64,000 nucleotides of DNA from the IMG/VR virus record IMGVR_UViG_3300045988_080466, one strand, 5' to 3'. Every line of letters begins with the position of its first letter. Position 1 is the stretch's first letter. The translations under genes and the position numbers were made by a program. This stretch comes from a virus. Under the pieces are notes generated by a model, which was not told the DNA's origin, ran no database searches, and worked only from the letters and a program-made list of their open reading frames with translations. Below are positions 10,337-55,989 of the stretch, one piece after another.

Positions 10337-12364
10337 ATGGCAAATTGGAGTAATTTAAAAACAGCAATATCAAATGTTGTTAAAAGTAACGGAATCCAAG
10401 GGATTACCGGAGATTCACTACAATCTGTAATGTTAAATATGGTTACAAAACTAGGAGAGAATTATATGTTTGCAGGGGTAGCTACCCCTGCTACAACTCC
10501 TGGGACTCCAGATGGTAATGTATTCTATATTACTACACAAGCTGGAACTTATGCCAACTTTAATAATACAGTAGTGGCAGATGGAGAACTAGCAATTCTT
10601 ATGTGGAATGGTGCTTGGACAAAACAGAGTATGGCAATAGCCACTCAAGCAAAGATGGAAGAAATTGACCAACATGTAACGGAAGTTGATGCTAAACTTA
10701 ATGAAATGCAAAAAGGTATGGAAGATGTATATGCCTATGGAGTCGAATGGGATTCTACTGTGGCAGACCCTACTCTCACAAGAATTGGGAATCTTACTCT
10801 TCATAAATCGTTACCTATTCAGTCTCAATTAAAAGGCTGCGTAGCTAACGGAGGAGTAATCAATTATTATCTTCATCCAGATGATTGGTCAAAGAAAGAA
10901 GATGGCACACCATCAGTATTAGATGGAACTGACGGAACTGTCAGAGTTAAAGTACCTCGATTCTGGGGAAAATCTGGAGTTGTAGGAACAAAAAGATGGG
11001 TTAAGATTTCTACTGTATGTATTGATGATACTTGGACAGAGATTCCAGCAATGTTAATAGATGCATATAGGTCTACAACAGATAACACTGTAACAGCAAC
11101 ACCTAAGTTGGTATCAGTTGTGAATACTACTGCTGCATTTAGAGGTGGAGGAAATAGAACAGCTTATGATACTTATTTAGAAACAGACCCAGTAAGAACA
11201 GATTTAGGAAAACCAAGAACAGCAATGACTAGAGCAGTTGCACGTACTTGGGCAACAAACGCGGGTTCAGAACTACTGAACTACGAATACTACAAATGGA
11301 TAATGTTTTGGTTACCTGTGATTGAGTACGCTACATTTAATATGCAAGCTAACTTCAATTCAGATTTAACTTCCGAAGGATTTCATCAAGGAGGATTAAG
11401 CGCAGGTGTAACAAACATGTCAAATTGGGAGTTTTACAATGGAAATTATTCAGTATGTCCTTGCGGATATGCCAATGAATTAGGAAATTTTACAGGAGCT
11501 AAGGTTATTCCTCAAGCTGATTGGGTTTATGAATCCACAGGTTTAACTAATATGGCTTCTTATTCAAGAGATACTGCTCAAGCAGATATGACAGCAGAAA
11601 CAAATAAAGTCACAATTACAAACGTTAAAGGTACTAATAGATATATGTATAGAACTTGGGGTTACCAAAATGGAGAAACCGTTTATACTATATCAGGATT
11701 AGCAGAGGGACAAGATGTAATATTCTATGTAGGAGGTACAACAGTAGCAACAGCTACAGCCGATGGAGATATTACAGTAAATTGGCCTACAAACAATCTG
11801 GGAGATAGATGCATTAAATCATCTTTTACTGGAAGTTGTAATATTGTGATTTCTATTAAGAGTGCATCTAACGTAAATGTAACAGTTAGCCGTCCAGCTA
11901 TGAGTATTGCAAGATATAGAGGATTTGAAAATATCTTTGGAGACCTGTGGACAAATATGGAAGGCATAATTATACAAGGTTATACAGACGAAGGAACAAG
12001 CACTTATAACTGGAAAAATGTATATACAACTACTAATCCAGAAAATTATGGAGAAACAGAAACTCAAAAAGCTAAAATGAAATTAATCTCTAGTAGAGAA
12101 ATTCATGCAGATGGATATACTAAGGATTTTGACCTCCAAACAACAGGAGAAATAGTACCATGTGCTGTTGGTGGTGGAAGTACTACCTATATGTGCGACT
12201 ATCATTACACTGGTAATAAAGACGCAAGTCTAAGGACACTCTTGCTTGGCGGCCGCGCTGATTCTGGCGGTGCTTCCGGCCCTGGTTGCTTCTATTCTGG
12301 TGTTGGGGTCGGCCTTTCCAGCGCCGCTGTGGGTTTCCGTACTCTAAATAAAATTGAAAAATAA
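10337..12364 (+). CDS. DGR target protein: tail fibre / receptor-binding protein with a C-terminal C-type-lectin-like variable region
   Basis: 675-aa ORF starting 3 nt after the preceding fibre gene. Its last ~40 codons (LLLGGRADSGGASGPGCFYSGVGVGLSSAAVGFRTLNKIEK) contain the VR and end with the GFR motif common at the end of CLec-fold DGR variable regions. The VR is a conspicuous GC-rich island in an AT-rich gene. Confidence 0.85.
   Translation: MANWSNLKTAISNVVKSNGIQGITGDSLQSVMLNMVTKLGENYMFAGVATPATTPGTPDGNVFYITTQAGTYANFNNTVVADGELAILMWNGAWTKQSMAIATQAKMEEIDQHVTEVDAKLNEMQKGMEDVYAYGVEWDSTVADPTLTRIGNLTLHKSLPIQSQLKGCVANGGVINYYLHPDDWSKKEDGTPSVLDGTDGTVRVKVPRFWGKSGVVGTKRWVKISTVCIDDTWTEIPAMLIDAYRSTTDNTVTATPKLVSVVNTTAAFRGGGNRTAYDTYLETDPVRTDLGKPRTAMTRAVARTWATNAGSELLNYEYYKWIMFWLPVIEYATFNMQANFNSDLTSEGFHQGGLSAGVTNMSNWEFYNGNYSVCPCGYANELGNFTGAKVIPQADWVYESTGLTNMASYSRDTAQADMTAETNKVTITNVKGTNRYMYRTWGYQNGETVYTISGLAEGQDVIFYVGGTTVATATADGDITVNWPTNNLGDRCIKSSFTGSCNIVISIKSASNVNVTVSRPAMSIARYRGFENIFGDLWTNMEGIIIQGYTDEGTSTYNWKNVYTTTNPENYGETETQKAKMKLISSREIHADGYTKDFDLQTTGEIVPCAVGGGSTTYMCDYHYTGNKDASLRTLLLGGRADSGGASGPGCFYSGVGVGLSSAAVGFRTLNKIEK
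12239..12337 (+). repeat. DGR variable repeat (VR), 99 nt, 33 in-frame codons at the 3' end of the target gene
   Basis: Gapless alignment to 12451-12549 at a constant offset of 212 nt, checked base by base. There are 28 mismatches and all lie where the TR has A. No mismatch lies where the TR has C, G or T. Position 12239 is codon position 1 of ORF 10337..12364. Confidence 0.92.
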
Positions 12365-12450
12365 TTTCTCATAACATATAACAGATAGGGCACTATTTAC
12401 CTTTTTTACCGGGTTGCAAGGGCAGCGAAAGTTTACTGTGAAAAACAAAA

Positions 12451-12549
12451 CTCTTACTTAGCAGCAACGCTAATAATGGCAGTAATTCCAGCCCTAGTTA
12501 CTTCAATTCTAATAATGGAGTCAGCAATTCCAGCACCAATGTAGGTTTA
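12451..12549 (+). repeat. DGR template repeat (TR), non-coding, adenine-rich
   Basis: In the VR frame the sequence reads ctc tta ctt agc agc aac gct aat aat ggc agt aat tcc agc cct agt tac ttc aat tct aat aat gga gtc agc aat tcc agc acc aat gta ggt tta. It has 31 adenines, nine AAY codons and seven AGY codons. It sits in the 330-nt non-coding gap between the target stop and the RT start. Confidence 0.92.
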
Positions 12550-12694
12550 TTATATATTTTGATTTTGATAATTTTGTTTTTATTATTTTGTCTAAATAGT
12601 GTCCTTGCCTCTTGGCAAAAAATAACGTAGTATTTAATATAACTGGTGTTAGTAGGTTAATTCTCGAACACTCCTTGCATAAATATATAAGACT

Positions 12695-13939
12695 TTGAAA
12701 AGAATAGGATATTTGCATGAGCAGGTATGTAGCCTGTCTAATATAGAACTTGCTGATAGAAAAGCAAGAAGACACAAATCAGTCAGATGGGGAATCCTGA
12801 AACACGATAAGCATCATGAGAGGGAAAATGAAAAGTTGGCAACCGTTTTGAAGAACTTGACATATCACACTTCAAAATATAGCACGTTTAAAATCTATGA
12901 GCCTAAGGAGAGATTAATCTTTAGGCTTCCATATTATCCTGATAGAATTACGCATCATGCGATAATGAATATAACAGAACCGATATGGGTAAATATATTT
13001 ATCAAACATACATATTCTTGTATAAAAGACAGAGGAATACATGATGTTGCAAAAGACTTAAAGTACGTTTTGCAAAAATATCCAGAAGAAACTAAGTATT
13101 GTTTGAAAATTGATGTGAAGAAATTTTATCCGTCTATTAACCATGACATACTGTACGAAATACTCCAAAAGAAAATAAAAGACCCTAAATTGTTGAGTCT
13201 ACTAAAGGAGATAATATATTCGGCAGACGGAGTACCCATTGGAAACTATTTGTCTCAATTCTTTGCAAATTTATATCTTGCTTATTTTGACCATTGGGTC
13301 AAAGAAGAGCTTAAATGTAAATTCTATTTCAGATATGCAGATGATATAGTAGTATTAAGTGACAATAAAGAATTTTTGAGAACAGTTCTATTGTCAATGA
13401 AATTATATCTGCGAAATGTCTTAAAATTAGAACTTAAACAAAATTATCAAATTTTTCCCGTAAACAGTAGAGGAATAGACTTTGTAGGTTACAAGTTTTT
13501 CCATACTCATGTACTGCTCAGAAAATCTATCAAAGTTAGATTATTCAAGTTAATTAAAGGGTACAAGGATAAGAAAATTGATAGAAACGAGCTAAGAAGG
13601 AGAATGCAATCGTATTTTGGATGGTTAAAGTTCTGTAATTCTAAAAATCTACTCCATAAAATTCAGTTAGAGACTGGATTGAGATTTTCTAACTGGAATG
13701 GGAAGAAGGTAAATATTTCAAGATTCTATGGTAAGTATATTCATATAGTTGACATCATATTGTATAGTAATAGATCCAGAGTCAACTTTGTATATAATTA
13801 TAAGTCATATTATTTTGAGAGTAAGAATAAACGATTGCTTTATTCTATACGTAGATATTCATTACCTGTAAATTTTAAAATAACACCATATGTTAGACCC
13901 AAGAAGAATAGAAGCAAACCTGCAACCCGAACCGATTGA
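12695..13939 (+). CDS. DGR-type reverse transcriptase (414 aa) with a ~90-aa basic C-terminal extension
   Basis: Motifs seen: YEPKERLIFRLPYYPDRITHHAIMN (RT motifs 1-2), CLKIDVKKFYPSINH (motif 3), PIGNYLSQFFANLYL (the [ILV]GxxxSQ motif that distinguishes DGR RTs from group II intron RTs) and YFRYADDIVVL (YxDD catalytic box). The thumb region ends near GWLKFCNSKNLLHKIQ. There is no in-frame ATG near the 5' end; an in-frame stop at 12653-12655 leaves TTG at 12695 as the best start. Stop is TGA. Confidence 0.9.
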   Translation: MKRIGYLHEQVCSLSNIELADRKARRHKSVRWGILKHDKHHERENEKLATVLKNLTYHTSKYSTFKIYEPKERLIFRLPYYPDRITHHAIMNITEPIWVNIFIKHTYSCIKDRGIHDVAKDLKYVLQKYPEETKYCLKIDVKKFYPSINHDILYEILQKKIKDPKLLSLLKEIIYSADGVPIGNYLSQFFANLYLAYFDHWVKEELKCKFYFRYADDIVVLSDNKEFLRTVLLSMKLYLRNVLKLELKQNYQIFPVNSRGIDFVGYKFFHTHVLLRKSIKVRLFKLIKGYKDKKIDRNELRRRMQSYFGWLKFCNSKNLLHKIQLETGLRFSNWNGKKVNISRFYGKYIHIVDIILYSNRSRVNFVYNYKSYYFESKNKRLLYSIRRYSLPVNFKITPYVRPKKNRSKPATRTD

Positions 13940-14264
13940 ATTGCTTGGAAATGGTACATATTACTATAACTATGATATTAAATCAGAAATAGTATACGTT
14001 CCTCACATGGACGGAAGTACAACGGAAGAAATTAGATGGAATTACATTCAGATACATTTAAGTGGAACACCAGAATATAAGGCATGTGCTAGAGCTATTA
14101 TTAGACAATATATTGATGAAGAATCAGAGTTCTCCATAATTAATGACTTTAATGCACACCAATTAGGAATTAGAAAAGATGAAAAAGCATACTCTGAATA
14201 CATAGAGTATATTAATTTAGTTTCAGAAATCAAATCAAAAATTAAGTCGGACTTTAATAAATAA
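13890..14264 (+). CDS. hypothetical protein (124 aa), overlaps the RT 3' end by 50 nt
   Basis: ATG start on the coding strand. The protein is acidic, with a Tyr-rich beta-looking N-terminal half and a helical C-terminal half. No recognisable motif and not Avd-like by composition. Confidence 0.5.
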   Translation: MLDPRRIEANLQPEPIELLGNGTYYYNYDIKSEIVYVPHMDGSTTEEIRWNYIQIHLSGTPEYKACARAIIRQYIDEESEFSIINDFNAHQLGIRKDEKAYSEYIEYINLVSEIKSKIKSDFNK

Positions 14265-14268
14265 AATT

Positions 14269-14673
14269 ATGGATTACGCAATTGTAACAAAAGAATGGAT
14301 GACACAACGTGGTTTAATCATAGAACCACACATGAGAACAAGTGTAGATAACAACAAAGTAGTATTACACAAATCGTGGCTAAGACCTTTCTTAGAAGAT
14401 GAAGGTATTGAGCTTTACTATCATGACGACCCTGCTTTTATAGCACTATTAGCATCTGCAGAATGGACATCTCCTGAGGGAGAAATCGAACCTGTGTCTA
14501 TGGGAGAAGGAACAAAAGAAAGTCCTTACACATATGATGGAGTAATGTCTTTAGTAAAGGGTAACTATTACTCACAAGATGGAGTTACATATCTATGTAC
14601 AAGAAGTCTTTATGAAGAAAACAGCACTGCTCTTAAAGATTTAATAGGAATGTATGTAAAGGAAGCTGCCTAA
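14269..14673 (+). CDS. hypothetical protein (134 aa)
   Basis: ATG start 4 nt after the previous stop, on the coding strand. It is followed by a long hairpin and T-tract. No recognisable motif. Confidence 0.55.
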   Translation: MDYAIVTKEWMTQRGLIIEPHMRTSVDNNKVVLHKSWLRPFLEDEGIELYYHDDPAFIALLASAEWTSPEGEIEPVSMGEGTKESPYTYDGVMSLVKGNYYSQDGVTYLCTRSLYEENSTALKDLIGMYVKEAA

Positions 14674-22733: not shown

Positions 22734-24155
22734 ATGATAGTAGCGAATTTTGTATCAAACAGACCGACAATGTCGGAAACTAGAACTTATGAGGATTTCT
22801 ATAAGTTCTTAGGAACTAGACCAACTAAATTAGGTGTTGTTTCAAGACTTTACCCAGAACTTACAGCTTCTTACCTAACAGAATCTCTAAGAAACATTTT
22901 CTACCAAGATGTAAAATCTGGTAATAAATATCAAAGCATTGACTCAATGTACTTTGAATGGGAAGTTGAAACCAACTACATTAAGAGAGTTGAGTTTGCA
23001 GATGTACCAACAGAAGATGGTTCAAACGGTTCAGAAATTGTAATGGCTTTCAAAGAAAGATATTACGAAAAGTATGACATCTTCAAGATTGATAAAACAA
23101 TGCAGCAATGTATTGTAGTGAGCAGACCAGTTAGAAAAGCTGATAACTATTGGGAAGTAGTTGTTAGACTTATTGATAGTGACTATTCTAGCGTTCTTGA
23201 CTTTAGTGGTTGCCAAGTAGGTGATACTACTAGATTCCAATCTAACGCAATGCCTGAAATGCACGAAGAAGGATATGTTAAATATCAATCTAACATTGAA
23301 AAACACAGAAACTTCATCACAACTCACAGATGTGACGACAGTTATTCTGCACTTTATGCAGCTCATGAAAACGTATTCATCAGTATTGCAGAAGGAAAAG
23401 ATACTGGTAGCTTGAAAGAAACATTATATAAGATGGACAAGAAAGAAAAAGTTCTTCTTGATAACTTCTTATATGTAAGAAACAACGGTCTATTATTCAA
23501 CAAATGTAATGTTGACGTAAATGGTAAACCGACTATTGTTGACCCAGATACTCAAAGACCAATCTACATTGGTGACGGTATCATCCCACAAGTAGAAAGA
23601 TTCGCATCTAAATATGCGTTCGCAAAACTTTCTATCGACGTATTCCAAACTGTAATTGCTACAATGAATGAAAAAGCAACTCAGCCAACTGGAAACAAAT
23701 ACGTATTTATTTGCAATGAAAGAATGTGGTTCTTAATCCAGAACGTTCTCGGAGATTTCTTAGCTAAATACAAAACTATTGGTACTTACCTATGGTCTAA
23801 AGCAGCTAACGATTACATCAAAGTTGGTGCTGCATTTGATAGCTATACATTCGGTGGAAACACTATCTCCTTCAAAGTTGATAGAACATTCTCTAGAGAA
23901 TATGGTATGGAAAAAGCATATTGTCTATGCTTAGACCTAACTGCTGATTCTACTGGAAATGAACCTCCAATCCAAATGTTCACACTAAAAGGTGGAGACT
24001 TCATCACTAATAAATATCCAGGTGTAGGTGGATTAGACGGATTAAGTTCAGGAATTGTATCAAGTCCTGTTGCTGCTTCTAAGCTAATTAACTGGGGATA
24101 TTCTGGTGTTGGCGTATTCAACCCATATAGAAGCTTCATTTTAAGAGAACTTTAA
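22734..24155 (+). CDS. putative major capsid protein (473 aa)
   Basis: Its size and its position after a scaffold-like gene fit a capsid gene. It is followed by the cleanest terminator in the window. The gene order matches crAss-like structural modules. No direct motif proof is available by eye. Confidence 0.55.
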   Translation: MIVANFVSNRPTMSETRTYEDFYKFLGTRPTKLGVVSRLYPELTASYLTESLRNIFYQDVKSGNKYQSIDSMYFEWEVETNYIKRVEFADVPTEDGSNGSEIVMAFKERYYEKYDIFKIDKTMQQCIVVSRPVRKADNYWEVVVRLIDSDYSSVLDFSGCQVGDTTRFQSNAMPEMHEEGYVKYQSNIEKHRNFITTHRCDDSYSALYAAHENVFISIAEGKDTGSLKETLYKMDKKEKVLLDNFLYVRNNGLLFNKCNVDVNGKPTIVDPDTQRPIYIGDGIIPQVERFASKYAFAKLSIDVFQTVIATMNEKATQPTGNKYVFICNERMWFLIQNVLGDFLAKYKTIGTYLWSKAANDYIKVGAAFDSYTFGGNTISFKVDRTFSREYGMEKAYCLCLDLTADSTGNEPPIQMFTLKGGDFITNKYPGVGGLDGLSSGIVSSPVAASKLINWGYSGVGVFNPYRSFILREL

Positions 24156-32700: not shown

Positions 32701-33157
32701 TGCAGACTCTTTATTAATAAGATATACAACTGCTGGAGAAGGAGGATTCTCAGGACTTGGAGCTGTTGGGCCAAATGGGGACATTTATGAAGCTACTTTA
32801 AATGGAGAGCCGTTCTCCGAAGGTAGAATTTATTGGCTAAACAGAACTGGACAAATTGGATTTTATGGACTGCAAGAGAAGCCATTTACTTTATACAAAG
32901 ATACGTTCTCTGTTGACGGTAGTGGTAATATCACAGTTTCCAGAGTAACCACAGTAGATGTTGCATCAGGAAATTATTCAGCTCTTGGCAATATATTGAC
33001 TCTGCAATCTACCGAAACAGGTAAGCCTAACATATTGGTCAACCGAGCATCTCTAGGTGTAGCAGGAACAACAAGAAGAATTTCTAGTTACAGTGACGAT
33101 GATTGGTTCAATATATATCAAATAAAAATAAGTAGTGATTTAGCTATTTGCGGATGA
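29792..33157 (+). CDS. large tail structural protein (1121 aa), candidate tail barrel/ring protein
   Basis: Assigned from its size and its position after the connector genes. The N-terminus TVNTFDGGLVMDLNPMTTPNNVVTDCLNSTMITYDGNEFILQNDMGNG resembles the N-termini of podovirus tail tube/ring proteins. The call rests on position plus this weak resemblance. Confidence 0.45.
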   Translation: MSKQETVNTFDGGLVMDLNPMTTPNNVVTDCLNSTMITYDGNEFILQNDMGNGRVETAKLDAGYIPVGIKEYGGIIYVASVNPLTNKCQLGSFPSPERNFTTDEISKSPIILQTSDFFTKGLNTMYVRKELLDGEENKLRPGDKFIIGSTGINDSLNDILSDYKTKGKRILRLHLAILDDDNNISYIEDEVNHVDGYWIYPLSGDEVDDTELLAGQNPKYPYNVYKNKVSGKLLLIAELETPKTFNTSVDVYKVEDDKVSMMVPISWDEDEEEKAKLLGVKVECEHEGEGNLTRFVDFDKDNYEFRIEDLVKDDKLFTYAFTPYTSFGTIDYLSKRGSMNLSYIGTGKIDLVEWRYYVDQNSISISWGLEAYPRYGYQITEVNMDFRDVTDPNTPNVYRTRQRRSYNGNFTEYITFDESNVYFENSYMSLTKGKLYVVRIEAVSTNSLDPTNKISNITYRLMYTSSTFNESFIANKVDDFSSLEINCDLDIDVNQKIGEKTSSSNTLMAELVKSSAEVTPKDMMSFIYTSFEEEQEIVAVPILKKNSDKNFFIGDIGESDVALEIDVKSQGIDITDYEPKLMGSTGLEEYYNSILPNVGTGSVTSSSAITRSELLKDDSMKFEVTGRTTGSTWKGTLRGSNIKKITSDLKYTRESGSVRRIAPYMDLENFRQSDISPLFGHEISTPTAASPHFHFNKMIAMISGRKKKSSSQRYRSGVATYSNGWSLTDVTSGKDTHYGGDLPDNNTGFTNDFYACMNNGYAGRPIFAVLRGCGRDEDGNGRLKVLSGYNSGWSYSMDGNLWRQYQEPDYGGWDLDCNRWSFILWKTTDSDKYVALNACMCVDNWDGRGNTFMLDKLMLFLSQLYVAQDREYSTEKYIPDNVYYQNNFKAAYKYTITAEPTEKGNKVLNIISEGKRIDAKAINDIIADFEDTPSEKVIVAELPSLNNINYVLSLDRLISQDYSTSVTTPSADSLLIRYTTAGEGGFSGLGAVGPNGDIYEATLNGEPFSEGRIYWLNRTGQIGFYGLQEKPFTLYKDTFSVDGSGNITVSRVTTVDVASGNYSALGNILTLQSTETGKPNILVNRASLGVAGTTRRISSYSDDDWFNIYQIKISSDLAICG

Positions 33158-36100
33158 AGATAACATATAACAATACAGAGGTAACTGCATCGTCTAAGAC
33201 GTTTGAACTTGCGGACTTTCGTCTAGACTTTCAGTTATCTTTAAAGAAAATCAATACAAAAGGTAGAATAGTATACGAATATAATCCGTTTAGAAATTAT
33301 AGGCTTCCAGATGGAACCCTGAATGATTTCGATACAGAAGAACTTGGATTTGATATTAATAATCCAGTTTCTATACTTACTCAACCTTCGTATGATGGTT
33401 CTGTCAATCTAATATTGAATGACAATAAGAACATACCGAGATTAATTAACTCAAGATTCTCTGTAAGAGAATTGAATACATACGAAATAGTCGATAGGTC
33501 AGGAAGTAATGATACCAATATTTACGACCAAGGGGAACAGTTTAATATTGATACATCGCTTTATAAAAGAACTACAACTATCCCTAAACTAGATTTTGGT
33601 GGAGTATTCCCAGGCGGAGACCTAGATGTTGGAAACTATGTATTTTATTTTAAATTCTCTGATGCAGACGGAAATGAAACAGATTTTGTAGCTGAGTCAG
33701 GAATTGTATCTGTATTTATTGGAACTTCTCCGCAGTCTATTAGAAGTGGATTAAGAAATGAAAATAGCCATAAATACGCTCAGTTTGTTCTTAGAAATAT
33801 CGATTCTGCATATAATTACGTTACTGTTTATTATACGAAAAGTACTTCTGATGCTAATCAATCAGAGGTAACATCTGCCCATAAGATAGACAAAAAGTAC
33901 CTTATTAGAGGTGATGCTTCTGTTATTCTTATTAATGGTAGTGAAAACATTATTGATATTTCATTAGATGATATTAATATGCAGTATAATATTGTGGATA
34001 GAGTTAAAGCTCAAGCTGCTTGTCAGAATATGTTATTCCTAGGTAATGTTAATAAACCTAAGATAGACTACACAGAGCTTGCTGACCTATCTCTAAGATT
34101 CACTCCTTATCTCAACACTTCTAAGAAGATAGAAGATGTAGGAACATCTTATGATACCGCTGCCGGATACTATAATCCAAATAATATATATCACTTCCTT
34201 GGATATTGGAATAATGAAATTTATAGACTTGGTATAGTTTATATCTTAAAGGATAATTCATTATCTCCTGTATTTAACATTAGAGGAAGGGATGAGATTC
34301 CTACATATACACAAGGACTTTATACAGATACTCCATTGTACGATGCTCAAGGTAAGAGAAATTATATATCTATTAATGAATCTGATTACACAATTTCATC
34401 AAATGGATATATTGAAAATGCAATGGGTGTATGTAGATTTATAAATGAAACTGATACTAATACTGATAAGATTGCTTATGGTATTGATATTAGAATTATG
34501 CAGGAATCTAACGAAGTAATGGAAGAATTGAAAAAGCACATCAAAGGTTTCTTCTTTGTAAGACAGAAAAGAATCCCAACTGTACTTTGTCAAGCACTTA
34601 CCATAGGACTGGATAGACAGAGTCATTTACCTACTGTTCCAGTTAATTTGGAGAAGGTAACTAATAGAAGTCTAACATCGGAAGAAAAATCAGAGAATTT
34701 CATTCTTGAAAGGTTCATAAACGACGATAGGACTTTAGATAGTGACTATGTATCTAGGCTTTATAAAATGAAGAAGTCTGGTATATTGCAGAAAGCCGCA
34801 ATTTGCCCGGAGTACGAATTACGTGCCCCATATTTCAATCAACTCTTTACAGGAGAAGATTTCCCAGTAGGAGAAGCTGATTGCCAACCTACAGAAGAAT
34901 ATTTTGACTGTGAATATATAAATAACAGACACTTATATATCCCTGCATACAAGAGTAATATTGGAGAAGCCAAGAACTTATCTCATAAAGTTAACATTAT
35001 AGCTGTTGGAGATGATGTGGAACTTGTATCAAACGGAAATCAGAAATTCTCTTCAAGAGCTGGTTCTGCCGAAGAAGCATATAAATTTGAATATGCTTAT
35101 AAAGAAAACAAAGTAAAGACAGCATCCAATTTAATTAGAGGAGCCTATGGTCCTTATCTTGGAATGGATAACTTTGAGAGAGTTATGAAACTTATCAATA
35201 TCTACATTCCAGAATATGATGTAGGTAAGAATAAAACATATTTCGATGTCAGATACAGTGATAAATCTTCTTATTATGCAATAAGCGATAGAATAGATAT
35301 TGAAGAGTTTAATAATTCTGTGACTTGTTATAGAGGTGACTGTTACATTTGCCAATATACACATAGAATGAATAGAAACTTCCAAGACCCTTCTGCTCCT
35401 ACTAATGATGATATAGTTGACATTAATACTTGGAAAAACAATTATGATGTTAACAATAGTGAAACAAACGCTAAGATAAACAGAGGGGATGTTAATGCTA
35501 TTCAATTAGGACATTGGATTACATTTAAAGTAAGGTCAAGTATTAATCTAAGTATTAGAGATTTAGATTATTCTTATCCTGCCGAAGAAGGACTTGTAGG
35601 ACATCCTAGAGTATTCTATCCTTTATATGCTCAAAACATAGAAGGCTCATATAAGACTCCAGAATCGTTTGTTATAAATGCTGGAATAAGCTCTACAACA
35701 TCTGATAAGTATTATTTTGAACTTCCTAATGTTCCTTATATAAAGAATAATTACGAAACCAGAATATTGTACTCCAACATACATGTAACTGATGCCTTTA
35801 AGAATGGATTCCGTGAATTTAAGTTTACTAACTATCGGGACTATCCAAAAACTTATGGTTCAATTATTAAAATGGTTGAATTATTTGGTAATATCTTATG
35901 TGTGTTTGAGCATGGTGTTGCCTTAATTCCAGTGAACGAAAGAGTCGAAGCAGGTGACGGAGTAGGCGGAAGCGTCTTCATAAACACCTCTAATGTGCTG
36001 CCAGAGAACCCAAGAGTACTGTCGGATACATTCGGTACCCAGTGGCCCGAAAGTGTCATCAAGACCCCATATTTCGTTTATGGAGTGGACACAGTAGGAA

Positions 36101-37845
36101 GGAAGGTTTGGAGAACTAACGGACAAGAGTTTGAGATAATCTCGGATTTCAAAATACAAGAGTTTCTAAATAATAATATTACTCTTACTGAAAGAGAATT
36201 GACCCCAATAATTGGAATCAGAAATGTGAAAACTCATTACAATAGATTCAAACAGGACGTAATGTTCACATTCTACGATAACCTTTATGGATTCGAAGAG
36301 AAAGTTTGGAACATTTGCTACAATGAAATCTTACAGAAGTGGATGACATTCTATTCATGGGTCCCTTCATATTCTGAAAACATAGATAATATGTATTTCA
36401 GTTTTGATAGAAATACTTCTAAACAGGCAGCTAAAATGTGGGCATCTACTCATGGAGAATATATTTATACTGACACATTCTTGATAGAGGATGATGGCCC
36501 AGTAAATCTATTCTTTAGAGAAGATAAGAAGCCTTCTACATTTGAACTTACTGTTAAGTTTAGTATTGAAAGGGACAATTTAGGAAACTATAAACGTTTC
36601 GTCTTAGACGGAGATACTATTAAGTATAATACTACTGAATACGGAAAACCAGACGGAATTTACTTACTAAACGTAAGAGCTAATCTGGAATATCCAACAG
36701 GTGGTTCTCCTGCAATACAAGAATATATAGATTCTTATAAAAACTATGCAACGGTAAATGCAGGATATTATGACTTAGTAATTGCTTTATGTACTAAAGA
36801 GTATAGAGATAATCTTACTACTTCATTCTGGAAGCATGGAACAGCAGGAATTATTGATATTGCTGATACTCTTAAACCATGTATGTGGTATGGTAAACAA
36901 CATCCATTTGAGTTTGAAGTTGTAGTACTTGATAATCCTTCAGTTCATAAGATATTTGAAAACTTAGTAGTCCTATCTAACAATGTTGCTCCAGAATCAT
37001 TCCATTATGAAATAACTGGAGACGTTTATGATTTTGCTGACGATAGGAGAAATATGTATTTCAGACAAGAAGCTACTAAGAACTTATATCAGTATAATGG
37101 CTCAGATATTCTATTTAATAAGAACTACTTAAAGGTAAAACCAAAACAAAGAGACATATTAGGTTCTACATCTCCTTATAAAGACAGGTCTACAATGTTT
37201 CCTTTGTATTACACAAGAGTAGATACTGTTAATGAAATAGAAGATTATTACCAAGCAGCCACAGCTCCTAATAAAGACTATCAAAGTCTATCAGGTTCTG
37301 AAATTATCTATAATGAGAAACTAGACTCGTTTAAAATCCTTACTCATGTTAAAGGATGCCCATTTAAGGGATTCTATAAACAAAGATGTAAAGATACAGA
37401 CCCAGGAGCTATAATCGATGACTCAGTTCCATATCCATATGTGTGGGCTCAATATGGAAGACTTAGAGGTAACATGGATTTCATAGAAGATAACTGGTAT
37501 GTACAAATTCCTTCAATTAACTTCTACCAGAGGAACGAACTTCAATGGAAGGTTGGAAAGGAAGGAGCTTGGTATCCTCCTCTTAACCTAGTGAACAATC
37601 CTCTTCCGAGTGATATGTCAGTACTAGAGATTAAAGGTAAGAGTGATATTCCAGAGGACTTAGTTAGACTTGGATATGATGTAAATGCAGACTCGTTTGA
37701 TACAACTAAATGGGAAACTATTACTAATCGCAGGAAAGAGTCTAAGATAAAGGATAAGGTTATGAAGGTAAAAATCAGATATACTGGTAACGAGCTAGTT
37801 TACATAACTGCATTAAAAACAATATATAATATAAGTTACGCATGA
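33154..37845 (+). CDS. large tail structural protein (1563 aa from ATG 33154)
   Basis: The ORF track starts at TTG 33148. ATG 33154 forms an ATGA overlap with the upstream stop (TGA 33155-33157), as at other junctions in this operon. The function is inferred from size and position only. Confidence 0.45.
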   Translation: MKITYNNTEVTASSKTFELADFRLDFQLSLKKINTKGRIVYEYNPFRNYRLPDGTLNDFDTEELGFDINNPVSILTQPSYDGSVNLILNDNKNIPRLINSRFSVRELNTYEIVDRSGSNDTNIYDQGEQFNIDTSLYKRTTTIPKLDFGGVFPGGDLDVGNYVFYFKFSDADGNETDFVAESGIVSVFIGTSPQSIRSGLRNENSHKYAQFVLRNIDSAYNYVTVYYTKSTSDANQSEVTSAHKIDKKYLIRGDASVILINGSENIIDISLDDINMQYNIVDRVKAQAACQNMLFLGNVNKPKIDYTELADLSLRFTPYLNTSKKIEDVGTSYDTAAGYYNPNNIYHFLGYWNNEIYRLGIVYILKDNSLSPVFNIRGRDEIPTYTQGLYTDTPLYDAQGKRNYISINESDYTISSNGYIENAMGVCRFINETDTNTDKIAYGIDIRIMQESNEVMEELKKHIKGFFFVRQKRIPTVLCQALTIGLDRQSHLPTVPVNLEKVTNRSLTSEEKSENFILERFINDDRTLDSDYVSRLYKMKKSGILQKAAICPEYELRAPYFNQLFTGEDFPVGEADCQPTEEYFDCEYINNRHLYIPAYKSNIGEAKNLSHKVNIIAVGDDVELVSNGNQKFSSRAGSAEEAYKFEYAYKENKVKTASNLIRGAYGPYLGMDNFERVMKLINIYIPEYDVGKNKTYFDVRYSDKSSYYAISDRIDIEEFNNSVTCYRGDCYICQYTHRMNRNFQDPSAPTNDDIVDINTWKNNYDVNNSETNAKINRGDVNAIQLGHWITFKVRSSINLSIRDLDYSYPAEEGLVGHPRVFYPLYAQNIEGSYKTPESFVINAGISSTTSDKYYFELPNVPYIKNNYETRILYSNIHVTDAFKNGFREFKFTNYRDYPKTYGSIIKMVELFGNILCVFEHGVALIPVNERVEAGDGVGGSVFINTSNVLPENPRVLSDTFGTQWPESVIKTPYFVYGVDTVGRKVWRTNGQEFEIISDFKIQEFLNNNITLTERELTPIIGIRNVKTHYNRFKQDVMFTFYDNLYGFEEKVWNICYNEILQKWMTFYSWVPSYSENIDNMYFSFDRNTSKQAAKMWASTHGEYIYTDTFLIEDDGPVNLFFREDKKPSTFELTVKFSIERDNLGNYKRFVLDGDTIKYNTTEYGKPDGIYLLNVRANLEYPTGGSPAIQEYIDSYKNYATVNAGYYDLVIALCTKEYRDNLTTSFWKHGTAGIIDIADTLKPCMWYGKQHPFEFEVVVLDNPSVHKIFENLVVLSNNVAPESFHYEITGDVYDFADDRRNMYFRQEATKNLYQYNGSDILFNKNYLKVKPKQRDILGSTSPYKDRSTMFPLYYTRVDTVNEIEDYYQAATAPNKDYQSLSGSEIIYNEKLDSFKILTHVKGCPFKGFYKQRCKDTDPGAIIDDSVPYPYVWAQYGRLRGNMDFIEDNWYVQIPSINFYQRNELQWKVGKEGAWYPPLNLVNNPLPSDMSVLEIKGKSDIPEDLVRLGYDVNADSFDTTKWETITNRRKESKIKDKVMKVKIRYTGNELVYITALKTIYNISYA

Positions 37846-46826: not shown

Positions 46827-49800
46827 ATGGAAAATGTACAACAAAACGATTGGTTTGCAACGATACTATACAATCCAGACAAAGACTTTAAAAACTTTAA
46901 AGAAGCTGGATTAGATGCAGCTAATACAGGTTTAAAAGATAGAGAATCATATAAAGATATACAGGCAGTGCAAGACCAATTCAAGGATGCTGAAGGTAAT
47001 TTTGATGAAAAATTATATAATCAGTTCTATGATAGCGCTGTAAGAACATATAATACTTTTGTACAAGGAAACATTGAAGATACATTCCTTCGTAATATGG
47101 TTAAAAGCCCGTTAGATATTTTATCTGACAGAAGTACTCCATCTCAAAAACCTTTGTTTATTGTACAAAAAGTATCTAATCCTACTCTTAAATCACAAGG
47201 TATTAATAGCTTATTTGGAGAAGGTAAAGCTCTTAGGTCTTACAGAGAAGCAGCTCAAACTCAAAGAGTTGTAGACTATAAAACTGGAAAAGAGCTTGAC
47301 TGGACTCCAGACGATGATGATAAGAGTGGATTCTTCGATTTCATGTTTATAGAACCATTAGTAGAAGCTAAGTGGGAAGAAGATGGATATCACAAAGACG
47401 AATATGGTAGAGACATCAAGCACTTTGCGGGAGACTATAAACTTAATGCAAATGGTATGCCATATTATGAAACTCTAGGAGATAGAGATGCTGCCAATAA
47501 GAGTTTCTTGCACTGGACTGATACATTGACTACTACTGGCTCTAAATGGGATAAATATAATTTCTTAGCTTCTGACGGAATTGATAAGAGCGTGGCAGGA
47601 ACTACTGCAAAAATGATTGCTACTATTGCCCCATTATTTATTCCTTATGTAGGACAGGCTTATGGTATTGCTACTGCATCTGCATATTTTGGTCAAGCAT
47701 TGGCAGTATTTGGTAAGACTGTAATTGATGCTATCGGAGATGATACTGCTTCTAAAAAGCCAGGTCTATGGCAGTTCCTTAATAAAATTGACTCTTCAGT
47801 TAGAAAGTTTGATTCATCTGTAAGTGACGCAGGAAATCAAGGAATGTTCAATTATGAACAATTTGCAAACTTAGTAACTGATGTAGTAGGTCAACTTTAT
47901 CAACAAAGAAGTATTGCTAAAATCCCACAATGGATTGGATGGGATGCTAGAAGTGCTAAGAACTCTAAAGCCTTTGTAGAAGCACATAATGCTGATTATT
48001 TAAAGAAATATGGAAAAACTCTACGTCAAGCTATTAAAGACGGAGATGTTGCTTCTGACTATACTAAATTAGTAAACAATGATTTACTAAATGCAATTAC
48101 TGCAAAACAGGGAACTATAAACAGCTTTGCCAAGAATGGTTCTCAATTCTACATGGCTATGACTCAATCTAAAGACATGTATGACACCTTTAAAGAAAAT
48201 GGGTTTAGTGATGTCACTACTGCCATTGGTATGGGTGCTGCATTATATGGATTTAGTAAGCTGTTTAATTCCTCTCTTGGAGAAGTGGCTCTTAGTGGTT
48301 TAGGTCTTGATGATTTAAAACAAGCTAATAAGAGACTTATTAGAGAGTTTACCAAAGAGATGAAACCTCAACTTGAATTAGTTGAAAAAACATCCTCTAA
48401 CATTACTAACTCCGGAAAAATTAAATGGATTAAAAATCTAGGTGAGAAATTCAAAGGCTTTTATGAAAAACATTTAGTAAATGACCCAGAGGGCTGGATT
48501 GCCAATTCTGTTAAGGAATCTATTGAAGAAGTATCAGAAGAAGCATTGCAGGATGTAATATTCGAAAGTAGTAATGTAATTGATTGGACATTTAACAAAC
48601 TTGGATGGACTCAAAAGGGAGGTAATTATGAGTTTACTCAAAGTAATCCTTTAGAAAGATACTTAATGTCAGCTCTTGGGGGTGCTGTGGGTGGAGCTAT
48701 CTTCCCTGCCATTACTAAAATGGAAAATATTAAAGATGGAGTTCCTAATATCCAAAAGAATATTCCTGAAAATCTAGCCATAGATATAGCTACTATGATT
48801 AGAAATAATGGAGTTCAGAAATCGGTTGATTTATTAAAGAAAAGTATTGATAAGGGAGAAGTAGGTTCTACAACTCTATCCATGACTTTATCTACTAACA
48901 CAACTGATGACGGGCGAGTTTATTATGAGCCAGCTAAGAAAAGAGAAGATAGCCAAAATAATATTGTAGGTAATATCTTAATTAATTATCTGTATGCGGT
49001 AGACTCTGTAATCAACAATGAAGGATATAATCTGAAAGACGATGAAGTTGTTAATAACTCATTAATGAAAGATTTCAGATTAAAACAACTTGCTGATACT
49101 GGAGTGGGAGAAGAAATTCTTTATGATTTCCAGAAACAATTACAAGGTCTTATTACAGCAGCTATAGAACTAAAGAGCGCATCAGAAAGTTCAGAAGTGA
49201 GCAAAATTAAGCAAAGATATGATGAATTTAAACAGAGAGTAGATGATACTTTATCTGGAAAAAGAGCAGGAGAATATGCTGAAATGATGGCATATAAATT
49301 AAATAGAGGATTAATGTCTCCATTTGCCGCTCCTGATATCTATGCTTATTCAAGATATGTAAGAGGTATTAACTACGCTACTGCAACAGAACAGCAAAAG
49401 AAAGACCTAGAAGCTGACTACGAGAAATATACTCAATCAGACCAAAAAGAAAAAATAAATCTTGGTTATGAAATATTTAAGAACTTAAAAGCTGAAACAG
49501 CTGAACCTATTCTTAGATATAGAGACTCTCAAATATATAAATATAAGTCTCAATTATATGATGTAATATCTAAACTTAATGATTCTCAAAACATTTCTAA
49601 ACTTAGTGATACAGAAATTGCTGAATATAAGGAAGAAGTAAGAAATGGAAGAAGCGATGACCAAATTATTGCTGATGCCAATCTTAATCCAGAGGAGAAT
49701 GTATATAGTGCTCAACAGAAAGCAAAAATAGTTGATTCTTATCTTGAAAGAGAAATTTGGAACTCAAATCCAGGAAGTGATAAAAAACATCCAAAGCCTT

Positions 49801-52800
49801 TTGGTAAAGCATATGTTCAGAATCTAAAAAATATGTTGGAGAATATGAAACAACATATGAGTATAGGTGTAGACCCAATTCTTAATCAGAGAAGAACTGG
49901 AGAGTTACAAGTCTTATTTGAATCAATAAACAACATAGTTCAATCTACTGGCTTTATTGATGCAGAGACTAAACAAATGATTGATACAGTTAAACAGAGC
50001 TATAATAGGTTTAGTCCTGAAAATTTTGTAAATAGACTTACAATATTCATGGACCCATTTAAGGGATTTACTTTCGAAGACTCTTATTACAACGATGTTC
50101 TTACTAGCAATTCTACTTACTTAGGTAAGATAGATGAAGTAGACCCATCCATTGTTGAAGAACTTGGAGATTCAAAGGGAGAGTATGTATTTGAGGACGA
50201 AGAAGGATATTATGCCCTAACTCAAAATGAAATGCAGAATGTGTTCATGGATATGTTTACTACAGAGTTTACTGGAGCTAACTCAGAAGAATTGCTTGGA
50301 GGAATCCTAACTGATGGAAATATAAATGAAAACTCTTTAAATTCTTCATTTAAAAAGAATCCTGACTTTTCTGTATTTAATAAACAATTACTTGAATATC
50401 TAAATTTAGACGCTGACAGAATTGGTTTATTAGGAGAAATTGATAAAATGTCTACTGCTGCTCTACAGGATAATCCTGTATGGGATATGTTGGGAAGACT
50501 ATCTACTAACCTTATTGGTGAAGATGTATTTAAATTACTAAAGGCAGAAGAAGGAGACTACAAAAGTACAGCTTCTTTGTATGACTACGTAATCAGTAAT
50601 GAACTTACTAGGGAGCAACTTGAAACCGCAAATACTGCAACTCAAATATTAAGTCACTCTATCATTCCATATCTTACTGGAAATGAAGGAGTATTTAATA
50701 TGATTGATATTGCCAATCAATATAAGAGAAACATGGGAGCTCAAGAAGATGTTCCTTTAACTCAAGAAGAAGCTCAAACTATTCAAACTGAATTACAGAA
50801 CATTCAACAAAAGATTGCATGGTTACTTGCAGTTAATGATATGAATAGTGGTAGTAAGACAGTTGATAGTAGTAAAACTATGGGAAGACTAAACAGTATG
50901 TTTGCACTTATATTAAGTGGGAATACCGCTGATTCTACTTTATCAAGACTAAAGAATCTAAGCTATACTGATGCTGATGAGAATGAACAAACATTCATTG
51001 AAGAAGATTTACTAACTGGCGATGAACTCGTTAAACTACAAGAGATTATCGCTAATGGTAAGAATGATGAAGAATCTCTAAGATTCTCAAATGAGACATT
51101 ATTAAGAGTTAGTAAGGCTTTATATGATAAATTCTCTGGACTTACATCTGAACAGAAAGAAGAAATTATAGGCAAAATAGCTGGAACTGATATTATTGAT
51201 TATAATGACTATGGTGCATCTAAATTCAAAAGAAATAGTACATATCAAGACATTAAAGGTATTGACCTTGCTACTTATCTGTTAAGTATTCTGGCAGTTA
51301 ATCCGGAAGAAATGCAGAGTGTGTTAAGAAAAGCTATTATTAGCAATCCTTCTCATGCTCCGTTCTATAATCAGATGTTTAGTGCCCAAGAAATGTTTGC
51401 CTTATATAAGAATCCTGTATTATTCAATAAATTCTTACAGAAAACTTATGAGTTTAAGCCTATTCAAAATAAAGAGTTCTATACAAAGAATACCTTTACT
51501 AAGAATATAATTACTGTACTAGGAGGGGCTGGGACAGGTAAATCAACTGGTGTTGCTAAGGTAGCTTACAACATGATAAAGATTGATAACCCTGATGCTA
51601 CTGTAATGGTATCTGGACCTAAAGCTGACGTAGGAGAAAGACTTGCTGCCACATTAGGAATTGATAAGAGCTATGACAGACTTCAATTATGGCAAGCATT
51701 ACTTACCGAATCTGGTTGGGAAAAGGTAAAGAAAGCAATTTCCGAATTTAGAAATCCACCAGAAGAAAAGGGAGAAACCCCTTATTTAGTAGACGGAAAT
51801 CCTGAAATATATAATCAAAACTTCCTAACCGAAGAAGATGTAAATATTGCAGCTTTACCTGATGTATTATTTGTTGATGAGTTTACTCACTTCTCTGGTA
51901 TAGAAATGCAAATGCTTGCCAGCTTAAGCAAGTTTGTCGACAAGGATATGGTTATTTATGCCCTTGGAGACAATAAGCAAGAAGGAGTAATCAACCCAAG
52001 AAATGGAGAAGAACTTGATTTAACTGGAATGTATTTTGGAACTCCTGTACTTACTTCAAGTATTAGAGCCAACAATGTTCATAAAAAAGATAATTTGGAT
52101 AAAGTATCTTCAATATTGTCTGAACTTATTGATAAAGAACAAGACAGTCAACTTAATGGAACTCAATTAAACATCAAGTCTACAATGAGGGACATTAGAA
52201 GTAAGTCTTTATTAAAGTATTATGAGCTTAAAACTGATAAAGAAATAATTCTTCATGGAGATAAGCTAGTAGATGAAAATGAACTAAATGTTGATTATCT
52301 ACAAGGACTTATTAATAACCTAAAGGAGGGGGAAAGAATTGCCTTAATTACTGATAATGTTCTTTCAGACTTTAGAAAAGATGTATTTCATCAATTTGAG
52401 GAAAAATATCCTGGACAAGTAGTAGTAAGAGATTCAAGAGACGTTCAAGGTTCTGAATTTAAATATACTATTGTCGATGTTAACTGGACTGATACAACCA
52501 ACCAGAATACATTTATTAAAGATTTAAAGTATTTCTATACTTTAATGAGTCGTTCAGCTGATGGTAACTTAATAGTTAAAAAGAACTATAATATGGTTGC
52601 TAAATCAGATAGGGCTTCTACAACAAGTACTTCTGAACTTAAGGCTGATGACATTGACGGATATAAGAAATTAATCCTTAGTGTTTTAAAGGATGTTAAG
52701 CCAGACACAGAAGAAGTCCCGGTGGCTACAACAGAAGGAGAAGAAGTAGGAGAAACAATTCCAGCTACTCCGGAAGAAGTTCCTGCAACTGACGGTAACA

Positions 52801-55988: not shown

Positions 55989-55989
55989 A

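Follow-up and report, generated by a model that had tools for sequence, protein, structure and literature searches.

The locus described here is a complete and, on the basis of its sequence features, probably active DGR of the known Avd-independent lineage found in crAss-like phages. It lies within a stretch of 64,000 nucleotides of viral DNA (hereafter the window), which also encodes Crassvirus capsid, muzzle and ring proteins. The elements follow one another in the order tail-fibre target gene with a 3' variable repeat (VR), 85 nt gap, template repeat (TR), 146-nt structured spacer and RT gene, with two small ORFs further downstream. The features referred to in the text are as follows:

10337-12364, + strand: target gene of the DGR, encoding a 675-aa tail (fibre) protein and carrying the VR at the 3' end
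12238-12336, + strand: VR, 99 nt, 73 % identity to the TR
12388-12399, + strand: long-range duplex P1, 5' arm, located upstream of the TR and pairing with 12593-12604
12450-12548, + strand: TR, non-coding, with 31 adenines, conserved among relatives
12550-12559, + strand: 5' arm of P5, UUAUAUAUUU, which begins 2 nt past the TR; putatively the template strand in a cis-priming duplex
12593-12604, + strand: 3' arm of P1 (inverted repeat; RNAalifold)
12601-12695, + strand: full-length, sub-threshold match to the Rfam RT-17 RNA (RF03020; 29 bits, E = 0.0018)
12605-12618, + strand: hairpin P2 (UUGCC-UCUU-GGCAA), stacked directly on P1
12619-12629, + strand: conserved single-stranded tract AAAAUAACGUA, which includes columns 251-254 (A, C, G and T)
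12645-12674, + strand: helices P3 (12645-12649/12670-12674) and P4 (12655-12656/12664-12665) around the conserved GUUAGUAGG
12681-12690, + strand: 3' arm of P5, AAAUAUAUAA, located upstream of the RT start codon at a distance of 4 nt; putative primer strand, with A12690 as its 3' end
12695-13684, + strand: DGR RT core, aa 1-330 (N-terminal extension subdomain, fingers, palm and thumb), with a TTG start
13685-13939, + strand: RT C-terminal extension, aa 331-414, followed by the TGA stop; structured domain and disordered basic tail
13890-14264, + strand: ORF124, acidic protein of 124 aa (phrog_11557), overlapping the RT end by 50 nt
14269-14673, + strand: ORF134, acidic protein of 134 aa, listed as context only

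The target protein matches the PHROG family phrog_5302 'tail protein' (E = 5.9e-81), and the VR falls within the last 127 nt of its gene. Comparison of the C-terminal 300 aa of the target against the PDB sequences gave no C-type lectin (CLec) match. Fibre gene homologues also sit 5' of the RT in relatives. The VR and TR are offset by 212 nt, and their homology stops at 12336 and 12548, respectively, with the flanks diverging beyond these points. The pair is adenine-specific, with 27/27 mismatches in the 99-nt core lying opposite a TR adenine (TR-A to VR-N). When the VR is compared with that of the closest relative (L010), 11/31 adenine sites and 8/68 other sites differ. The target gene stops at TAA 12362-12364, and therefore 85 nt (12365-12449) separate the stop codon from the TR, one fewer than the 86 nt counted in an earlier, sequence-only reading of this DNA, which was correct in that no ORF fits into this gap. 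Elsewhere in the window, no internal repeats were found in the 2160-aa protein at E ≤ 1e-5, and promoter and terminator scans gave counts at background level. The region 55988-64000 is a single open frame running off the window end; stop-codon recoding, suspected there as no ORFs had been listed, was thereby ruled out.

The RT ORF spans 12695-13939 and is matched by the Pfam RVT_1 domain at aa 77-267 (E = 7.6e-18). It encodes GNYLSQ at aa 183 (IGNYLSQ, aa 182-188) and YADD at aa 214, corresponding to the [I/L/V]GxxxSQ and YxDD motifs by which RTs of the DGR clade are recognised. Profile searching identified the Bordetella bRT (8ub7_A, 328 aa) as the best PDB relative (E = 2.8e-58), and since the alignment covers query residues 2-330 (chain residues 3-326), the end of the thumb can be placed at about aa 330. 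The sequence-only reading had set it near aa 325 and had described a basic, beta-looking extension beyond it; this description holds, with an extension of about 85 aa. The AlphaFold2 model of the RT (mean pLDDT 88) superimposes on 8ub7_A with a Foldseek TM of 0.94 and rmsd of 1.6 Å over 330 columns, and the core is thus bRT-like, with the GxxxSQ and YADD motifs. The TTG start at 12695 proposed earlier is retained, as it is conserved in relatives, while the in-frame stop nearest to it on the 5' side is TAA 12680-12682 and not, as had been stated, TAG 12653-12655; no canonical start occurs between this TAA and the TTG. Homologous RTs align from residue 1-2. At the aligned start position, all close relatives (L010-L031) have TTG, LMMB-like loci have ATG and L032 has GTG.

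The extension that follows the thumb is strongly basic (pI 10.45; 19 K/R versus 3 D/E) and rich in aromatic residues. It comprises a structured, beta-rich domain of about 70 aa (aa ~335-400), for which AlphaFold2 predicts strands at 348-356, 361-367, 370-376 and 392-395 and a helix at 379-386 (pLDDT 80-90), while residues 403-414 are predicted to be disordered; modelled alone, the extension attains a pLDDT of 84. It is kept in 59/59 aligned homologues, with S332, N333, W334, G336, I341, Y367, L381 and K395 nearly invariant and S376 invariant, and its conservation extends to over 100 independent clusters of proteins (390-430 aa) drawn from many samples. Searching 1.84 billion representative proteins with the extension gave only 76 matches, and every match that was inspected proved to be an RT or a fragment of one. 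The RTs bearing it all fall in one clade of crAss-like phage RTs. The basic domain is thus genuine and clade-specific, and the extension represents a synapomorphy of one RT subclade. The earlier reading had looked to structure prediction and Foldseek for the nature of the extension, and these have given a predicted beta-rich domain with no significant relatives: the best PDB match has an E-value of 0.05, and the PDB and BFVD together yielded nothing beyond small beta-barrels without significance and proteins of the same RT family. The PHROGs search with the extension alone gave no match, and no significant fold match was obtained to the D (DNA-binding) domain seen in RTs from group II introns, with which the extension has no more in common than its location after the thumb. 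Visual comparison suggested a similarity of the extension to the 'family a' ORFs of about 110 aa that are located between VR and TR in some short-RT relatives. Its derivation from such an ORF by fusion was rejected (hhalign probability of 0.07 %).

Covariation among relatives indicates that the RNA around the TR forms a set of conserved pairings, P1 to P5. In P1, which was independently predicted by RNAalifold, 9/12 pairs show changes on both sides (17 loci). All cells (100 %) pair in P2, where 2/5 pairs are compensatory (GC to AU and CG to UA), and 90-94 % pair in P3/P4, where 5/7 pairs have changed on both sides. Columns 251-254 in the AAAAUAACGUA tract are invariant in 17/17 extension-clade loci. 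Overall, 89.9 % of cells pair, as opposed to 44-54 % when the partners are slid, and changes on both sides occur in 16 pairs, as opposed to 5-7 in the slid controls; 0/500 shuffles reach the observed values. The two arms of P5 are perfectly complementary and the predicted helix crosses P1 as a pseudoknot. Their complementarity is kept in six sequence variants among the relatives, each of which is matched by 0.7-6.6 % of 1000 dinucleotide shuffles. The evidence for P5 thus consists of these per-sequence shuffles (longest-complement tests) on AU-rich arms and of compensatory variants recognised by eye, as was a P5-type pairing in the short-RT loci. A cross-genome matrix of duplex energies was uninformative for P5, because the arms are AU-rich and common to many loci. 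No conserved stem-loop was found between the TR end and the 3' arm of P1, a region which is variable and AU-rich. A correlation between the RT extension and a minimal P2 hairpin was also considered and rejected, as a minimal P2 also accompanies the short RTs of cr60_1 and cr52_1.

Much of this spacer corresponds to the Rfam motif RT-17, with P2 representing its first stem and P3/P4 its second stem system. The match covers model positions 1-95 of 95, although its 29 bits fall below the gathering score of 40.4; the short-RT relative L040 scores 40.4 bits. A covariance model constructed for the spacer element in this study (R1) detects one element in the window and locates it in 27 other loci, in each case immediately upstream of the RT. 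In common with RT-17, the RT gene is immediately preceded by a hairpin, CCUUGCC...GGCAAAA, and by the stem system GUUGGUAG...CGAA, whereas the P2 loop in the window is a tetraloop rather than an insertion of about 40 nt. The window element is RT-17-like in its working, homologous in layout and divergent in form. The original description of RT-17 (Weinberg et al. 2017, PMC5737381) did not tie the motif to DGRs or to the long-range P1/P5 pairings.

Avd is absent from the 64-kb window: no PF05635 or Avd-like match was obtained at E ≤ 1 in the 16 ORFs of 87-310 aa scanned, in agreement with what had been noted for the neighbouring ORFs. The same target-TR-RT order is found in relatives, with VR-TR offsets of 141-283 nt. 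In the Bordetella phage BPP-1, the only structurally solved DGR, the bRT-Avd-RNA RNP (PDB 8ub7; preprint 10.1101/2023.10.23.563531) carries the Avd pentamer on the N-terminal subdomain of the RT and on a stem-loop just 3' of the TR. The present locus resembles this system in the fold of the RT core, in adenine-specific mutagenesis and in the occurrence of two spacer duplexes, one formed with a segment upstream of the TR and one with the TR 3' end, which may be functionally equivalent. It differs in the absence of both Avd and an Avd-binding stem-loop after the TR, in the approximately 85 extra C-terminal residues of its RT, where bRT 'lacked additional subdomains', and in its spacer RNA, which is of the RT-17 rather than the RT-10 type. 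By analogy, P1 may be the counterpart of the avd:Sp ('cPRT stop') duplex and P5 that of the TR:Sp (template:primer) duplex of the Bordetella phage RNP, with the 3' arm of P5 acting as the putative primer (10.1101/2023.10.23.563531). If P1 and P5 represent these two Sp duplexes, cDNA synthesis would be cis-primed near A12690 and would enter the TR at its 3' boundary, with the template positioned by RNA scaffolding and not by an Avd pentamer.

DGRs of this kind have been described previously. Wu et al. 2018 (PMC5758913) found 29 % of DGRs to be without accessory genes, including the avd-less Lineage 3, which implies Avd-independent retrohoming, and reported motif-less C-terminal extensions in about 20 % of DGR RTs. 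The Avd-less DGR of crAssphage LMMB was placed by Morozova et al. 2020 (PMC7290462) in Lineage 3 / Architecture A, following Wu et al. 2018. It shares with the present locus the order TG-VR-TR-RT, the lack of avd, a tail-fibre target, an RT with 55 % identity over aa 1-411 (C-terminal domain included) and the same P1, P2, P3 and P5 pairings with compensatory changes. In contrast, the LMMB RT starts with ATG, no ORF124 homologue is detectable, and the LMMB genome (~98 kb, Intestiviridae) is smaller than the 140-187 kb contigs on which the relatives of the window occur. The locus displays the Avd-less Architecture A1 directly, and is placed in Lineage 3 indirectly, through the grouping of its RT with that of LMMB. 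RTs of 414 aa also occur in the Zeta crAss-like phages ctoVY1, cthgQ11 and 3717_85572 (PMC12386605, 2025), where variable RT C-termini were reported along with the GxxxSQ motif, fibre targets of the C-type lectin type and, for some RT genes, amber codons, and where AVD is missing from all phages but two. These phages have large genomes, as do the nearest relatives of the window (~185-kb contigs), and the phage from which the window derives would appear to be a member of the Zeta group. In that study, the C-terminal variation was treated as thumb variability, and no conserved extra domain or RNA structure was defined. The mechanistically distinct DGR subtype suggested by the sequence-only reading is thus not new: the locus belongs to an Avd-less lineage of crAss-like phages already described in these three studies (PMC5758913, PMC7290462, PMC12386605). 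The explanation we favour, with a probability of roughly 0.7, is that of an Avd-independent DGR of a crAss-like phage in which the RNA provides the scaffold, the C-terminal RT domain is an add-on, and ORF124 and ORF134 are linked to the fibre gene.

It had been proposed that the extension takes the place of Avd. Under this explanation the basic C-terminal domain would be a built-in replacement which holds the DGR RNA in a clamp and makes priming and adenine mutagenesis possible, giving rise to a distinct subtype. The basic and aromatic-rich composition of the domain and its conservation under selection are compatible with such a role, as are its restriction to RTs of Avd-less cassettes and the fact that Avd is itself basic and binds nucleic acid. 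Its weak Foldseek neighbours, none of them significant, are small beta-barrel nucleic-acid binders. The sister RTs of 316-361 aa (cr52_1, cr60_1 and L040-type), however, are equally without Avd and without room for it, have VR/TR pairs with 13-20 differences of the adenine-specific kind, and possess the same RNA motif in the spacer. RTs sharing the extension, for which the sequence-only reading had asked whether they also lack Avd, occur in Avd-less cassettes, but the short RTs do so too, and Avd independence does not depend on the extension. Furthermore, no RNA feature exclusive to the extension clade was found, and the contact of BPP-1 Avd is with the N-terminal subdomain of the RT rather than with the end of the thumb. 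Replacement of Avd by the extension, in the form in which it was put forward, is therefore not supported and appears rather unlikely. Similarly doubtful is a shared arrangement, in which the domain, as a nucleic-acid-binding module, and a self-organising pseudoknotted P1/P5 RNA would together take over the RNA-clamping and priming-support role of Avd; if this were true, a single polypeptide would make up the reverse-transcription machinery of the DGR, and its fold would be without known counterpart. The domain is most likely a nucleic-acid binder, its ligand being either DGR RNA or cDNA/target DNA, which was added on in its clade, and would not constitute a general solution to the absence of Avd.

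The overlapping downstream ORF was likewise put forward as a substitute for Avd. ORF124 and ORF134 are acidic, as had been noted (pI 4.94 and 4.56, respectively), and the Pfam comparison envisaged earlier gave no match for either at E ≤ 1, Avd included. ORF124 has no PDB-sequence match, its family profile retrieves no Avd chain from the PDB at E ≤ 10, and 0/21 family members match PF05635. A non-Avd accessory function, exerted by ORF124 alone or with ORF134, could be envisaged, considering that homologues directly follow the RT in 56 loci, usually overlapping its stop codon, and that these include non-crAss phages with short RTs. ORF124 is also small and acidic like CH1, the flanking protein of Avd-less DGRs (Wu et al. 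2018), with a pI of 4.9 against 4.7; the two were compared by description, and CH1 is longer (160-169 aa versus 124 aa). Contrary to what would be expected of such an accessory, five loci devoid of TR and RT (L092-L095 and L105) have an intact ORF124 homologue directly after the fibre gene, with 82-94 % identity to the protein of IAS virus. That virus, in its complete genome, encodes no RT anywhere, and its ORF124 homologue directly follows the fibre gene. No homologue is detectable in the LMMB-type DGRs with an extended RT, and where the gene is present it tracks the fibre gene. ORF124 as an obligate DGR factor, and with it as an obligate stand-in for Avd, is refuted, and its role as a new accessory is very improbable. 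The C-terminal domain of ORF134 is fused to ORF124 in L009, L020, L026, L029 and L030, and both would appear to be fibre-associated phage genes, such that in DGR-bearing genomes the TR-RT module may be regarded as sitting between the fibre gene and ORF124/ORF134.

That Avd is still used, being encoded outside the window or supplied by the host, would be consistent with the window covering about one third of a probable ~185-kb genome and with the AVD genes of the two Zeta crAss-like phages. The RTs of those two phages are clearly different, however, and the present locus lacks an Avd-binding-type stem-loop 3' of its TR. No avd was found for the LMMB DGR, and Wu et al., who looked for avd elsewhere in the genomes of avd-less DGRs, concluded that the mechanism is Avd-independent, so that continued use of Avd here is most improbable. 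Finally, an origin of the extension through a frameshift error in sequencing or through fusion of the RT with an unrelated ORF, the outcome that would have undermined the sequence-only reading, can be dismissed, given the recurrence of the same frame and domain in the independent clusters above, the conserved residues, the confident fold prediction and the occurrence in RTs only among all inspected matches, and no point in favour of such an artefact was found.

The locus makes concrete a question which has stood since 2017, namely how cDNA priming and the restriction of mutagenesis are achieved in Avd-independent DGRs. It offers a compact system of a single-protein RT and an RNA of about 335 nt (12365-12700), whose covariation-supported pairings parallel the two spacer duplexes that are essential in the BPP-1 DGR, and yields a testable predicted priming site and a removable C-terminal domain. 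The orphan Rfam motif RT-17 is hereby linked to DGR function, and the gene regularly found beside these RTs, ORF124, would be a fibre-linked gene rather than a DGR accessory.

The window encodes the structural module of a crAss-like phage, with all coding on the + strand. Besides the major capsid and muzzle proteins, Pfam matches were obtained for both tail ring proteins (1 and 2), for an endolysin of the amidase type and for a protein with a BACON domain. Behind a 3053-aa ORF (46827-55988) comes an open frame (55960-64000) that extends for at least 2680 aa and runs off the window end, which is why the last 8 kb appear devoid of ORFs. The flagged region is a bona fide diversity-generating retroelement (DGR), comprising a target gene with a variable repeat (VR), a template repeat (TR) plus a reverse transcriptase (RT).

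Principal features of the window
10337-12364, + strand: target gene, 675-aa tail protein (phrog_5302), with the VR at its 3' end
12238-12336, + strand: VR, 99 nt, 73 % identical to the TR
12450-12548, + strand: TR, non-coding, paired with the VR by sequence
12695-13939, + strand: RT ORF (Pfam RVT_1), with the DGR hallmarks IGNYLSQ and YADD
22734-24155, + strand: crassvirus major capsid protein (Pfam)
33148-37845, + strand: muzzle protein (Pfam)

All 27 of the 27 VR/TR mismatches are TR adenines changed to another base in the VR, and the VR differs from that of the closest relative at 11/31 adenine sites and 8/68 other sites. At one locus, whose RT is 89 % identical to that of the window (L008:5753-5860; ENA ERZ27241608 k141_338003), the TR position is occupied by a VR-like sequence that lacks adenines and is bounded on either side by flanks of the TR type. 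Its first ~55 nt are those of the VR of its own contig, and no more than 5-7 nt of its flanks are shared with those of the VR. This represents either a TR overwritten by mutagenised cDNA, and hence a self-inactivated DGR, or an assembly chimera.

A profile of fifty-nine RT homologues matched the Bordetella bRT (8ub7, the BPP-1 bRT-Avd-RNA complex) at E=2.8e-58 (query residues 2-330 against 3-326 of the 328 in the chain). Similarly, the AlphaFold2 model of the RT (mean pLDDT 88) superimposes on 8ub7_A with a TM-score of 0.94 and an rmsd of 1.6 Å over 330 columns. The TTG start proposed from the sequence is real, with no canonical start between it and the nearest in-frame stop. However, this stop is TAA 12680-12682 rather than TAG 12653-12655, as had been proposed. 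The RT homologues align from residue 1-2, and every close relative likewise has TTG as the aligned start codon; LMMB-like loci (resembling crAssphage LMMB) have ATG there, and one locus has GTG. The TAG lies in the highly conserved GUUAGUAGG loop of an RNA helix (P3; 12644-12675), and the TAA within the 3' arm of a further pairing (P5). In the otherwise full-length RT genes of L021-L028, L038, L039 (cr7_1), L064, L003 (cr52_1) and L005 (cr60_1), every in-frame stop is TAG, suggesting that amber codons are recoded or suppressed there; under code 11 no such interruption occurs in the window RT or the listed window ORFs. For one RT homologue, P0117 (394 aa; contig of 192 kb), the precomputed Pfam matches include the RNA-binding domain OST-HTH (PF12872) as well as RVT_1.

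The absence of the accessory protein Avd was borne out. The gap between the target stop and the TR is just 85 nt, and no match to Avd or another helical-bundle family was obtained at Pfam E<=1 among the sixteen window ORFs of 87-310 aa scanned. The order in relatives is equally compact, with VR-TR offsets of 141-283 nt. Accessory genes are absent in 29 % of DGRs, and ~20 % of DGR RTs carry motif-less post-thumb extensions of up to 150 aa (Wu et al. 2018; PMC5758913). The Avd-less DGR of crAssphage LMMB has been described (Morozova et al. 2020; PMC7290462), and its RT is the best annotated match to the window RT (55 % identity over aa 1-411). Among Zeta crAss-like phages, RTs of 414 aa, C-termini that vary between RTs and RT genes with amber codons were reported, with AVD in two phages only (2025; PMC12386605). 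The nearest relatives of the window RT occur on contigs of 140-187 kb, which fits this group, whose genomes are the largest in the order. The Avd-less architecture is thus already published, and the locus adds one more member to an established kind of DGR rather than the mechanistically distinct subtype envisaged by the sequence-only reading. Some short-RT relatives encode conserved ORFs between the VR and TR, the usual Avd position, of ~110 aa (L046, L051, L052, L056, L062, L063 and L076) or 124-138 aa (L065, L070, L074, L077, L079, L083, L084, L086 and L087). Neither family has a Pfam match, to Avd or otherwise, and both are possible uncharacterised DGR accessory families.

Two replacements for Avd had been suggested, the first being a downstream ORF. 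The two ORFs following the RT, ORF124 (13890-14264) and ORF134 (14269-14673), are acidic as described (pI 4.9 and 4.6, respectively). ORF124 belongs to phrog_11557 and has no Pfam or PDB-sequence relatives and no match to Avd. Its homologues lie directly 3' of the RT, usually overlapping its stop, in fifty-six loci, including non-crAss phages with short RTs. A search outward from the IAS virus homologue revealed five loci (L092-L095 and L105) where an intact ORF124 homologue lies 30-230 nt after a homologue of the target fibre gene, without TR or RT, while a sister locus (L091) has the order target-RT-ORF124. The complete 99,915-bp IAS virus genome likewise contains the ORF124 gene and no RT, while no ORF124 homologue was detectable in LMMB-type DGRs. 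These RT-less occurrences refute ORF124 as an obligate factor of the DGR. They show a linkage of ORF124 to the fibre gene, with the TR-RT module placed between these two genes wherever a DGR is present. In L009, L020, L026, L029 and L030, a single protein of 269-275 aa combines ORF124 with the C-terminal ~55 aa of ORF134, which suggests that the two window ORFs act together.

The second candidate was the basic, beta-looking RT extension of ~85 aa (aa 331-414), and its described character holds (pI 10.45, aromatic-rich, with confidently predicted strands). Its origin in a frameshift or chance fusion can be dismissed, as the query is covered to at least 95 % by members of over 100 protein clusters, each ~390-430 aa long. 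S376 is invariant in the alignment, and T327, G328, S332, N333, W334, G336, I341, Y367, L381 and K395 are nearly so. Modelled in the full protein and alone, the extension is predicted to start with three to four strands, which a helix and one last strand follow before a disordered basic tail. Foldseek identified no significant neighbour in the PDB (best E 0.05, among small beta-barrels) and only members of the same RT family in BFVD. When 1.84 billion representative proteins were searched exhaustively with a profile, only seventy-six matched, the full-length ones carrying the domain at residues ~322-409; the short ones inspected were RT fragments retaining the thumb end or fragments that had been miscalled, and one was a spurious repeat protein. 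The domain is therefore confined to the tail of this RT family. Neighbour-joining of the RT core groups all extended RTs (396-431 aa) in a single clade, apart from the short RTs. This clade spans LMMB (Intestiviridae), IAS-like phages (Steigviridae) and the large-genome group; cr55_1 may carry a very divergent version of the extension.

As a general explanation for the missing Avd, however, the extension lacks support. There are many short RTs (316-361 aa) that share 53-59 % identity with the window RT, about as much as LMMB, and are encoded in the same compact, Avd-less target-TR-RT cassettes with 13-20 adenine-specific VR/TR differences (e.g. cr52_1 and cr60_1). Avd independence thus belongs to the wider lineage, and a single branch acquired the extension later. 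Judged by the composition of the extension, binding of RNA or DNA is plausible.

For an alignment of seventeen extension-clade loci that begins upstream of the TR and ends at the RT start, RNAalifold predicted four elements (P1-P4), to which a fifth pairing (P5) can be added.

RNA elements around the TR
12388-12399 with 12593-12604, + strand: P1, long-range duplex bracketing the TR (RNAalifold)
12605-12618, + strand: P2, hairpin (RNAalifold)
within 12645-12674, + strand: P3 and P4, helices (RNAalifold)
12550-12559, + strand: P5 5' arm, UUAUAUAUUU, 2 nt after the TR, pairing with AAAUAUAUAA
12681-12690, + strand: P5 3' arm, AAAUAUAUAA, 4 nt before the TTG

In this alignment 89.9 % of cells are paired, against 44-54 % with slid partners, and both sides had changed in sixteen pairs, against five to seven with the partners slid; the observed values were not reached in any of 500 shuffles. 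P5 crosses P1 and so forms a pseudoknot. Its complementarity is kept in six sequence variants among relatives, each matched by 0.7-6.6 % of dinucleotide shuffles, and in short-RT loci this pairing recurs with additional compensatory changes. A covariance model for which only extension-clade loci were used has one match in the window and matches directly upstream of the RT in twenty-seven further loci, with long and short RTs, with no match in RT-less loci. The spacer matches the Rfam motif RT-17 (RF03020) over its full length but below threshold (29 bits against 40.4; E=0.0018), and one short-RT relative reaches the threshold. Eight short-RT loci (L040, L041, L045, L049, L054, L059, L073 and L088) carry a ~40-nt insertion with two extra hairpins in the P2 loop, which is the canonical RT-17 form, and keep the P1-, P3- and P5-type pairings with compensatory changes. 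RT-1 to RT-19 were described as motifs near RT genes, with RT-10 alone tied to a DGR (BPP-1) and a DGR role of others speculated (Weinberg et al. 2017; PMC5737381).

In the BPP-1 complex the spacer RNA forms two adjacent duplexes, one with the TR, which is the template:primer for cis-priming, and one with an upstream avd segment, which is the stop element. Avd binds to the RT, at the N-terminal subdomain, and to a stem-loop that immediately follows the TR. The window has no stem-loop of the Avd-binding type after the TR. By analogy, P1 would be the counterpart of the upstream:spacer duplex, and the geometry of P5 would be that of the template:primer duplex. A12690, with which the downstream arm of P5 ends at its 3' side, abuts the TR at the 3' boundary, and elongation would therefore copy A12549 and then the TR. 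Cis-priming would then be scaffolded by RNA without Avd, and the C-terminal domain may serve as a clade-specific nucleic-acid-binding accessory. More speculatively, RNA folding may compete with RT translation, because P5 sequesters the AU-rich leader just before the weak TTG start. The residual interest of this locus lies in an orphan C-terminal domain and in a testable RNA model of Avd-independent priming.
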